Assembly (NCBI RefSeq): GCF_009931435.1
Contig: NZ_CP043414.1
Origin: Escherichia coli
Lineage (GTDB): Bacteria > Pseudomonadota > Gammaproteobacteria > Enterobacterales > Enterobacteriaceae
Direction: 5' to 3' (one strand)
DNA length: 64,000 nt
The notes beneath the pieces are model-generated. The model had not been told where the DNA came from. It saw only the letters and a list, made by a program, of their open reading frames with translations, and did not search any database. Shown here one piece after another: positions 59,341 to 60,474 of the stretch. Positions within the stretch are counted from its first letter, which is position 1, and each line of letters begins with the position of its first letter. A program made the position numbers and the translations under genes.

Positions 59341-59839
59341 TCCATCCATGTTTACGGGATAGATAAAGATATATCGCTTCGAAACCATCGACATGGTTTG
59401 GATAGCCTTCCTCAGCAGCAAGGTTATCCCCAAAACATTCAAGAATATAATTTAAACGCGCTGTTTCATAATGAATCTTCCAGCGAGTCTGATTTAGTTT
59501 GCTGACCATTTTAATTTTATCCTCCATTGAGGTTACTGGTTGAGAATGGAGACCACACGTGACAGCGCGTGGTCGTGCGCCGGACACGGATAAGAATCCG
59601 GCACAAACAGTTTACTGAAAGGATATATCCCTGAAAAGTCAGGGCATAACGCGAAAGCGCACGGCGAAGTCATTCCTCCCTTTGTTGTGTACCACTGACA
59701 TCTTCGTCTGTGCGCTTCCGGTTGTGGCAATCCGCGAAATGGCGCGGCGGTAAGTATGGCGGGGTTATTCCTTCCCCGTTGAGGACACCGGGTTGTCAGG
59801 TTGACCATACGCTTAAGTGACAACCCCGCTGCAACAACC

Positions 59840-59902
59840 CATGTTGATTACCTTTTGGCGGGTATCCGTTTTTTGTTTTCCCTTGTGATACCCGCCCTTT
59901 TT
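59840..59902 (+). ncRNA. dicF: DicF-like small RNA (putative)
   Basis: TTTGGCGGGTATC...GATACCCGCCCTTTTT: 10-bp stem terminator plus T-run, followed by AAAGTGAATTTTGTGATG and a dicB-like gene, resembling the E. coli Qin dicF-dicB junction as recalled; the 5' part differs. Confidence 0.45.
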
Positions 59903-60085
59903 AAAGTGAATTTTGTGATGCGGTGAATGCGGCTCAGCGCACGCGGAACAGTTAAAAAGGCCAGTTGACTTCCGTATTGGTTCTTATGGGTGGGTTCTCT
60001 GTATCCGGCGTTAATTATTAACTGGTTAACGTCACCTGGAGGCACCAGGCACCGCATCACAAAATTCATTGTTGAGGATGCGATA

Positions 60086-60268
60086 ATGGAAACGTTATTA
60101 CCAAACGTCAATACGTCTGAAGGTTGTTTTGAAATTGGTGTCAGAATCAGTAACCCTGTATTTACTGAAGATGCCATTAATAAGAGAAAACACGAACGGG
60201 AGCTATTAAATCAAATATGCATTGTTTCAATGCTGGCCCGTTTACGCCTGATGCAAAAAGGACGATGA
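60086..60268 (+). CDS. dicB: Cell division inhibitor DicB-like protein (60 aa)
   Basis: ATG 60086 with GAGGATG SD; METLLPNVNTSEGCFEIGVRISNPVFTEDAINKRKHERELLNQICIVSMLARLRLMQKGR closely resembles E. coli DicB as recalled. Confidence 0.75.
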   Translation: METLLPNVNTSEGCFEIGVRISNPVFTEDAINKRKHERELLNQICIVSMLARLRLMQKGR

Positions 60269-60270
60269 CA

Positions 60271-60474
60271 ATGAATACAGTATTTGCACTCGTTCTGACG
60301 GTTTTTCTTAATACAGGCGAGCCAGTCGATCTTGTTATTGGTATACATGACTCAATGAAAGAATGCATGGCTGCCGCAGCGGAACAGAAAATTCCCGGCA
60401 ACTGTTATCCGGTTGATAAAGTTATTCGCATGGACAATAACGAAATCCCGGCAGGACTTAAAACAGCGCCGTAA
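60271..60474 (+). CDS. ydfD: YdfD-like small protein with N-terminal hydrophobic segment (67 aa)
   Basis: ATG 60271 with AAGGA SD 8 nt upstream (MNTVFALVLTVFLNTGEPVD...); follows dicB as ydfD does in Qin. Confidence 0.55.
   Translation: MNTVFALVLTVFLNTGEPVDLVIGIHDSMKECMAAAAEQKIPGNCYPVDKVIRMDNNEIPAGLKTAP

Follow-up and report, generated by a model that had tools for sequence, protein, structure and literature searches.

A modular counterpart of dicF with replaced pairing regions in a lambdoid prophage of Escherichia coli

DicF is among the oldest known bacterial small RNAs (sRNAs) and ties prophages to cell division, sugar metabolism and the virulence of enterohemorrhagic Escherichia coli (EHEC). 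The canonical RNA, encoded in the Qin prophage of strain K-12, is a proven trans-acting sRNA that employs its 3' part to pair with ftsZ and pykA and its 5' end to pair with xylR (PMC5069750). RNase III cleavage yields a 190-nt DicF species in K-12 (bioRxiv 10.1101/2023.04.14.536235), and a 72-nt form of the RNA is also an RNase III product (PMC5069750). EHEC has been described as carrying up to four dicF copies (Melson and Kendall 2019, according to the summary in PMC7873438), which the texts consulted treat as DicF with the same targets. Here we analyze a dicF-like locus located in a 64,000-nt stretch of the E. coli contig NZ_CP043414.1 (RefSeq assembly GCF_009931435.1), hereafter the window, to which all positions refer. 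A first-pass annotation, made from the nucleotide sequence alone, had marked positions 59341-60474 as a DicF-like sRNA with an altered 5' region. The locus is indeed a counterpart of dicF in which the 5' region is changed, but the divergence is larger than proposed because the 3' hairpin region has been replaced as well; we denote this allele B-H4, for its 5' module (B) and its hairpin (H4).

The dicF slot of Qin is part of the early-left operon and lies between ydfC-type small open reading frames (ORFs) and dicB/ydfD. The window locus occupies the same place in an early-left operon, with ydfA/B/C-type ORFs upstream, dicB directly downstream, and a conserved leader and spacer on the two sides of the sRNA. 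In the alignment to the K-12 Qin ydfC-dicB interval, homology starts at about 59514-59528, which is also where the homology to other prophages begins; the identity is approximately 85% up to 59668, the alignment breaks in a 37-nt patch (59669-59705), and the segment from about 59711 to 59836 is 100% identical to K-12 apart from one T/C difference near 59732. Downstream of the hairpin, near-identity resumes at 59897 (CTTTTTAAAGTGAATTTTGTGATG...; GCCGCCCTTTTTAAAGTG) and extends to the start of dicB, interrupted only by a 14-nt insertion at about 59958-59985, so that the earlier impression of a match to the Qin dicF-dicB junction was correct for this flank. Judged from these alignments, the window locus corresponds to dicF both by position and in evolutionary terms, and the interval 59514-60474 as a whole matches the Qin segment ydfC-dicF-dicB-ydfD. 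The first-pass annotation had also assigned about 500 bp upstream of the sRNA to a processed precursor; about 310 nt of this region (from 59514/59528 to 59835) are homologous to Qin, whereas the first 175-190 nt or so (59341-59513/59527) are unrelated and have no Qin counterpart.

Between the flanks, the body of the sRNA is different. Immediately after the conserved anchor GACAACCCCGCTGCAAC (59819-59835, plus strand, as for all elements of the cassette), the DicF 5' seed region is replaced by the B module, AACCCATGTTGATTACCTTTT (59836-59856), which is about 10 nt shorter and lacks the xylR-pairing seed UUUCUGGUGACG; a departure from DicF had already been noticed at about 59840-59856. The AUUACCUUUU part of the B module is predicted to be single-stranded and is a candidate for cleavage by RNase E, for Hfq binding or for the role of seed. 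The module is followed by H4, a hairpin with a U-tract that is predicted to function as an intrinsic terminator and to form the sRNA body (59857-59902). The two strands of its stem, GGCGGGTATC (59857-59866) and GATACCCGCC (59887-59896), form 10 perfect, GC-rich base pairs around a U/C-rich loop of 20 nt, CGTTTTTTGTTTTCCCTTGT (59867-59886), and are followed by the U-tract CTTTTT (59897-59902). In silico, this 3' end is of the DicF kind, a Rho-independent terminator hairpin with a U-tract, and its predicted fold (-18.5 kcal/mol, z = -5.7, with 0 of 200 shuffles as good) compares favorably with that of DicF (-15.9 kcal/mol, z = -2.3). Nested in the large hairpin, the terminator scan picked a shorter alternative, GGCGG-GTAT-CCGTT with TTTTGTTTTC after it (59857-59880), which might compete as a fold or act as an early stop and is predicted to be much weaker than the 10-bp stem. 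The cassette also contains a 15-codon ORF, MLITFWRVSVFCFPL (59841-59888), that runs from an ATG in the B module to a TGA in the 3' strand of the stem, and the frame of which is preserved in both of the main classes of loop length (20 and 17 nt, a 3-nt difference). This ORF is probably not translated because it is not preceded by a Shine-Dalgarno sequence, and a small peptide starting at the ATG at 59841 was rejected as the main explanation of the cassette on this ground and given the position of the stop codon inside the stem.

The similarity of this cassette to DicF itself is limited. Of the DicF hairpin, only the GGCGG/CCGCC base of the stem and the CUUUUU tail are common to both RNAs, so that the proposed match of the terminator to Qin holds for these parts and fails for the upper stem and the loop (59862-59891). 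A global alignment of the window allele with the 53-nt DicF shows 61% identity with several gaps, the residual homology being GGTATC.GTTTT...GTGA...CCGCCC. The window allele lacks the initial 12 nt of DicF, the CUCCG motif that in DicF pairs with the Shine-Dalgarno sequence of ftsZ is gone, and the ftsZ/pykA-pairing 3' segment is rewritten such that the 3' strand now pairs perfectly with GGGTATC. The seed is, accordingly, not identical to that of canonical DicF, and it is a reasonable inference from the altered 5' region, already made in the first-pass annotation, that the target specificity has changed. The Rfam model of DicF (RF00039, gathering score 48 bits) produced no match in the whole window at gathering and none in 59200-60200 at E <= 10, with K-12 dicF, the positive control, scoring 76.7 bits; other Rfam matches in 59200-60200 (snR75, HepC_CRE) were discarded as chance-level. 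It had been stated beforehand that the lack of an Rfam DicF hit, combined with the lack of a transcript, would count against a DicF-like sRNA, and the Rfam half of this combination is what we observed.

The replacement seen in the window is one of several that have occurred in this slot. Inserts were collected from IMG/VR by a scan for two conserved anchors separated by a variable gap and were then sorted by type, revealing a modular organization of the dicF slot across prophages, in which a 5' module, either A (the canonical seed) or B (that of the window), is joined at TTTGGCGG to one of the hairpin modules H1-H5. H1 is the canonical hairpin; H2, GGCGGCATCTGTTTGCCCATGAACTGATGTCCGCC, is found with A; H3 combines the H2 stem with another loop and is found with B, as is H4; and H5 is short. 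Among 5426 complete E. coli genomes, the canonical H1 is present in 3946, H2 in 290 (including O157:H7 and O121), H4 in 157 (2.9%; including O121:H19 and O55:H7) and H3 in 108, and the B module in 196; these figures overlap, as two or more alleles coexist in some genomes. The other non-canonical alleles, namely, A-H2 (O157:H7, O121 and E. albertii), B-H3 and A'-H5, share the flanks and the modular build with the window allele, and B-H3 additionally shares the B module, but the sequences and loops of their hairpins are different. Furthermore, A-H2 retains the DicF 5' seed and 81% identity to DicF, whereas the window allele keeps neither part of DicF. Representatives of A-H2, B-H3, A'-H5 and the sub-variant B-H4b (one locus each) did not reach the Rfam gathering score for DicF either.

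B-H4 was identified in 39 IMG/VR contigs, and in this database the H4 hairpin never occurs outside this locus context. Unrelated lineages harbor the allele (O121:H19, O55:H7, porcine enterotoxigenic E. coli and others), and it is found under different immunity regions, with a cI-type repressor in the window and RacR in O121. The loops of the H4 sub-variants span 17-22 nt around a conserved CGUUUU..GYUUUCCC core, the stem is almost always intact, and the single-stranded B module is nearly invariant across loci. The entire 1134 nt of the region (59341-60474) is 100% identical in three complete E. coli genomes and at least 99.6% identical in eleven others, eight of which are listed as O121:H19 or as isolates with the same seven-copy pattern. 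O121 genomes contain up to 7 places similar to the window region, including A-H2 and B-H4 together, a situation that resembles the published multi-copy dicF of EHEC in that several lambdoid prophages per genome carry a dicF locus. Given that A-H2 in O157:H7 has another hairpin, the ftsZ-pairing part may not be the same in all of the dicF copies reported from EHEC. No RNA is annotated by RefSeq at this locus in the matching genomes, which means little because canonical dicF is likewise unannotated in the listed non-K-12 genomes. Among the GTDB species representatives, the exact anchors were detected only in E. albertii (A-H2, A'-H5) and in one metagenome-assembled genome. A single deposited phage genome, PP818812.1 ('Actinobacillus phage vB_Apl-pPE4'), possesses an H4-like allele (2435-2620), in which the B-H4-like cassette is tandemly duplicated (93-nt unit) and followed by the Kil gene rather than by dicB. 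The backbone of this phage (DicA, YdaT, exodeoxyribonuclease VIII) resembles that of an E. coli Rac-type lambdoid phage, so that the stated Actinobacillus host is surprising. In most of the loci fetched from IMG/VR, GTDB contigs and the phage record, the cassette precedes dicB, and in 12 of them (2 with H1, 6 with H3 and 4 with H4) it precedes kil, suggesting that recombination has placed the sRNA scaffold ahead of one or the other of two division inhibitors that are unrelated to each other.

The capacity of the alleles to pair with ftsZ was scored by a cofold-based binding estimate (ddG) on 40 K-12 start regions (dcw neighbourhood). For DicF (A-H1), ftsZ ranked 2nd of the 40, with a ddG of -15.6 kcal/mol; the respective rank dropped to 12 for A-H2 (-7.0 kcal/mol), 30 for B-H3 (-1.6 kcal/mol) and 27 for the window allele (-1.6 kcal/mol). 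This estimate, which places the DicF-ftsZ pair second, replaced a windowed duplex-only scoring with low power even for that true pair (11 of 60 shuffles as good); whole-length duplexfold scoring was dropped on account of unrealistic long hybrids. By this model, the predicted ftsZ pairing is lost in B-H4, and consequently, filamentation through ftsZ is not expected. With the DicF seed deleted or replaced and the ftsZ/pykA-pairing region rewritten, the B-H4 RNA, if made, most likely does not repress ftsZ and is not the functional equivalent of DicF in this respect. Collectively, the window allele departs from the DicF family in three respects (covariance model, 5' seed and predicted pairing with ftsZ) and agrees with it in the genomic context and the terminator.

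In contrast to the sRNA body, the elements surrounding it that correspond to DicF processing features are retained. The RNase III hairpin base and the leader are conserved. Folding, the K-12 alignment and the allele census of the apex delineate a long irregular hairpin (59643-59728, plus strand), conserved at its base, GCGCACGGCGAAG / CTTCGTCTGTGCGC, and hypervariable at its apex (59669-59705). By homology, this hairpin would correspond to the RNase III substrate in which the 190-nt DicF precursor acquires its 5' end, at about 59715. Over 104 loci, the apical patch falls into about eight allele groups with 32 exact variants that show no linkage to the type of the sRNA cassette; in the window it holds an anti-Shine-Dalgarno-like UUCCUCCC. 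This patch could represent a further exchangeable module, or just an apex free of constraint. Separating the RNase III site from the sRNA is a 127-nt leader block (59709-59835, plus strand) that, by alignment with K-12, would constitute the body of the 190-nt precursor and shows 96-100% column conservation over 104 distinct loci; these loci were chosen by exact anchors of 17 and 22 nt, and the conservation reaches far past the anchors. The leader stays near-invariant while the adjoining sRNA cassette is swapped. It belongs to no Rfam family, its 36-codon GTG ORF has no protein-family match, and a consensus fold was uninformative, with too little variation for covariation and an alignment broken by the variable patch. 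Two loci that still carry the H4 hairpin have the leader deleted.

On the other side of the cassette, the spacer between the sRNA and dicB (59898-60074, plus strand) is predicted to adopt a multibranch fold (-73.9 kcal/mol, z = -5.9) with a closing stem, AAAGTGAATTTTGTGATGCGGTG / CACCGCATCACAAAATTCATT, of roughly 25 bp. By analogy with the processing of DicF, this spacer corresponds to the place where RNase III generates the 3' end of the 72-nt form. It also shows a partial similarity to STnc100 (Rfam RF02076), in the form of the same closing stem and the CACCUGGAGGCACCAGGCACC hairpin motif; however, the score of 33.5 bits (59909-60063, model positions 21-154 of 206) is below the gathering value of 47. 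Furthermore, bona fide STnc100 and PasD are RNAs of phage late regions, encoded near Q, stx and lysis genes (bioRxiv 10.64898/2026.05.13.724894; PMC12370729), whereas the window spacer belongs to the early-left operon. The Pas sRNAs were rejected as the identity of this element because they occupy other prophage regions (bioRxiv 10.64898/2026.05.13.724894).

The reading that we favor, with a probability of roughly one half, is that B-H4 undergoes a DicF-like biogenesis into an Hfq-type sRNA of about 55-60 nt that pairs with its targets via the U/C-rich loop or the ACCUUUU tail. Taking DicF as a guide, we infer that the cassette is transcribed, processed, dependent on Hfq and active in trans. 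When the S24-type repressor of the prophage is inactivated (e.g., in the SOS response), or in occasional derepressed cells, transcription would start at a PL-like promoter and run across two small ORFs and a noncoding stretch of about 750 nt. RNase III would then cleave the long hairpin near 59715, RNase E would cleave within the single-stranded GAUUACCUUUU, and the 10-bp hairpin with its U-tract would terminate the RNA, the products being the short sRNA and a precursor of about 188 nt. The loop (with its GUUUUCCC core) and/or the tail would pair with purine-rich, probably Shine-Dalgarno-like sites of other mRNAs, and the hairpin would keep its role as an attenuator that limits read-through into dicB. 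In favor of this scenario, the flanks are near-identical to those of the K-12 dicF locus around a replaced body, and the retained upstream RNase III-type hairpin and downstream stem match the experimentally defined biogenesis of DicF. No internal plus-strand promoter was predicted within 59341-59900, which is consistent with processing from an operon transcript. The modular build of the slot, the recurrence of B-H4 with intact stems and a conserved loop core, its strongly stable hairpin, the loop length kept in all H4 sub-variants, the tandem duplication of the cassette in a phage genome and the weak cofold value with ftsZ relative to DicF point in the same direction. Several observations weigh against it. 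The B module does not preserve AAU|UUUC, the RNase E site of DicF, and the sRNA's 5' end is therefore a guess. The H4 loop displays length polymorphism in its U-run and a variable 3' part, as expected of an unconstrained loop. Among the 40 K-12 start regions and the 211 ORF starts within the window, no convincing target of B-H4 rose above background: real candidates reached about -8 kcal/mol at best, the antisense strand of the sRNA itself matching by construction, and the exact complement of the H4 loop occurs nowhere else in the window. Finally, a literature search, which did not cover Melson and Kendall 2019, found no description of the allele or its sequence; a single literal-sequence match came from an unrelated Yersinia paper.

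A bolder version of this reading, which we consider only tentatively, is that the slot is a conserved processing and termination scaffold for swapped sRNA modules and that B-H4 is a functional Hfq sRNA with host or phage targets of its own. Under such a scheme, the RNA arm of the operon would be uncoupled from ftsZ and perhaps retargeted, for instance, to mRNAs for phage receptors, transport or metabolism; DicF itself targets manX.

The strongest rival explanation, distinctly less probable in our estimate than the favored one, holds that the cassette is only a terminator or attenuator that limits read-through into the toxic dicB (or kil), with the released RNA a by-product and the sequence differences the outcome of drift and re-pairing of the stem. 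Such a role would fit the perfect stem, more stable than that of DicF by the energies given above, and the identical U-tract, the maintenance of stems by different sequences across alleles with freely differing loops, the invariable position of the cassette upstream of a division inhibitor, either dicB or kil, and the failure to find a target for B-H4. However, efficient intrinsic terminators usually have short loops, and a plain terminator needs none of the size seen here, whereas all H4 sub-variants hold a loop that has not shrunk and that contains a conserved core. The near-invariance of the single-stranded B module and the tandem duplication in one phage also speak against termination alone, as does H1, the homologous allele made in the same way, which is proven to act in trans as an sRNA (PMC5069750).

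Much less probable is that B-H4 functionally remains DicF and represses ftsZ through residual GGCG/CGCC and CACAA/UUGUG complementarity in the DicF register. In duplex-only scoring, nt 32-54 of B-H4 do hybridize with positions -29 to -5 of ftsZ in this register at -17.1 kcal/mol, and B-H4 shares with DicF both its locus and the division inhibitor encoded downstream. Yet this hybrid is weaker than the mean of the shuffles (-18.8 kcal/mol; 48 of 60 as good) and vanishes once the hairpin of the sRNA itself is taken into account, as reflected in the ddG values above, and the motif complementary to the ftsZ Shine-Dalgarno sequence is gone. Slightly less probable still is a decaying, functionless dicF pseudogene in a drifting prophage region, for although B-H4 is an unannotated minority allele devoid of both known DicF pairing regions, nearly all copies keep the perfect 10-bp stem, unrelated lineages, different immunity regions and a deposited phage genome carry it, and the surrounding prophage looks complete.

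The setting of the locus is the early-left arm of this apparently complete lambdoid prophage. The repressor gene (57863-58513, plus strand), placed relative to a divergent cro-like ORF (57543-57770), encodes a protein of the lambda cI/LexA type with a helix-turn-helix domain and a peptidase S24 domain (Pfam HTH_3, 3.9e-12; Peptidase_S24, 1.6e-10). This repressor presumably controls the operon containing the sRNA, whereas the DicF operon is controlled by DicA. Just 3' of the repressor gene and its terminator, we noticed, reading the sequence by eye, a candidate early-left (PL-like) promoter (58580-58608, plus strand) with TTGACT at 58580-58585; a consensus promoter scan did not call this site at 58580-58608. 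A perfect palindrome with 9-bp arms, AAACTAAAT-AG-ATTTAGTTT (58589-58608), overlaps the candidate promoter and could be the operator of the sRNA operon. Next come two small phage ORFs on the plus strand, a YdfA/DUF1391-like one (58709-58939; phrog_751, PHROGs E = 2e-43) and another that belongs to phrog_1363 (58939-59340; E = 3.5e-38), both in agreement with the RefSeq annotation of the near-identical O121 locus. The approximately 750 nt that separate the latter from dicB contain no convincing plus-strand gene. On the minus strand, a candidate antisense-oriented ORF of 105 codons (from MEDKIK; 59210-59527) takes up the stretch that is unrelated to Qin (59341-59513) and also runs across the final 131 nt of the ORF at 58939-59340. 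It shows similarity to the NCBIfam ECs1072 family (E = 3e-7) at 30.6 bits, below the cut-off of 70, has a GGAGG upstream of an internal ATG, and gave no PHROG match. The Qin-unrelated stretch may therefore be coding on the minus strand, although the status of this ORF is uncertain; if real, it would be an antisense-oriented gene inside the early-left operon.

Downstream of the spacer, the gene assignments of the first-pass annotation held up: dicB (60086-60268, plus strand), encoding a cell division inhibitor, is 92% identical to K-12 DicB, scores 126.5 bits against NCBIfam NF049927 (cut-off 100) and is annotated as such by PGAP; the ydfD-like gene (60271-60474, plus strand) is 71% identical to K-12 YdfD, belongs to phrog_1092 and is annotated by PGAP as 'DUF1482 family protein'. 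A RecE-type exonuclease gene (60555-63026) is located downstream of the ydfD-like gene, and an excisionase-like ORF is also present. The same prophage encompasses a hok/sok-type module, as indicated by a sok antitoxin RNA (50788-50962, minus strand; Rfam, 105 bits). Where host genes (1 to about 17000) give way to the structural genes of the prophage, there is a tRNA-Ser (anticodon tga; 17398-17485) that may mark the chromosome-prophage junction; the integrase end of the prophage is at the other end of the window, beyond 63.4 kb.

B-H4 is thus best considered a diverged variant within the known DicF system rather than a new system, and one that probably regulates other genes. The allele has lost both experimentally defined pairing regions of DicF while keeping the whole biogenesis scaffold, and it is found in the pathogens O121:H19 and O55:H7. 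If the cassette serves as a terminator only, the case is an ordinary one. If it is expressed as an sRNA, it would be a natural seed swap that shows how targets change in horizontally transferred sRNAs, and 'dicF-positive' prophages would not be functionally equivalent. The H2, H3 and H4 alleles all escape the Rfam model, so that annotation relying on this model misses them. B-H4 accordingly provides a natural example of modular replacement of a seed and a loop, and exposes a blind spot of homology-based annotation.

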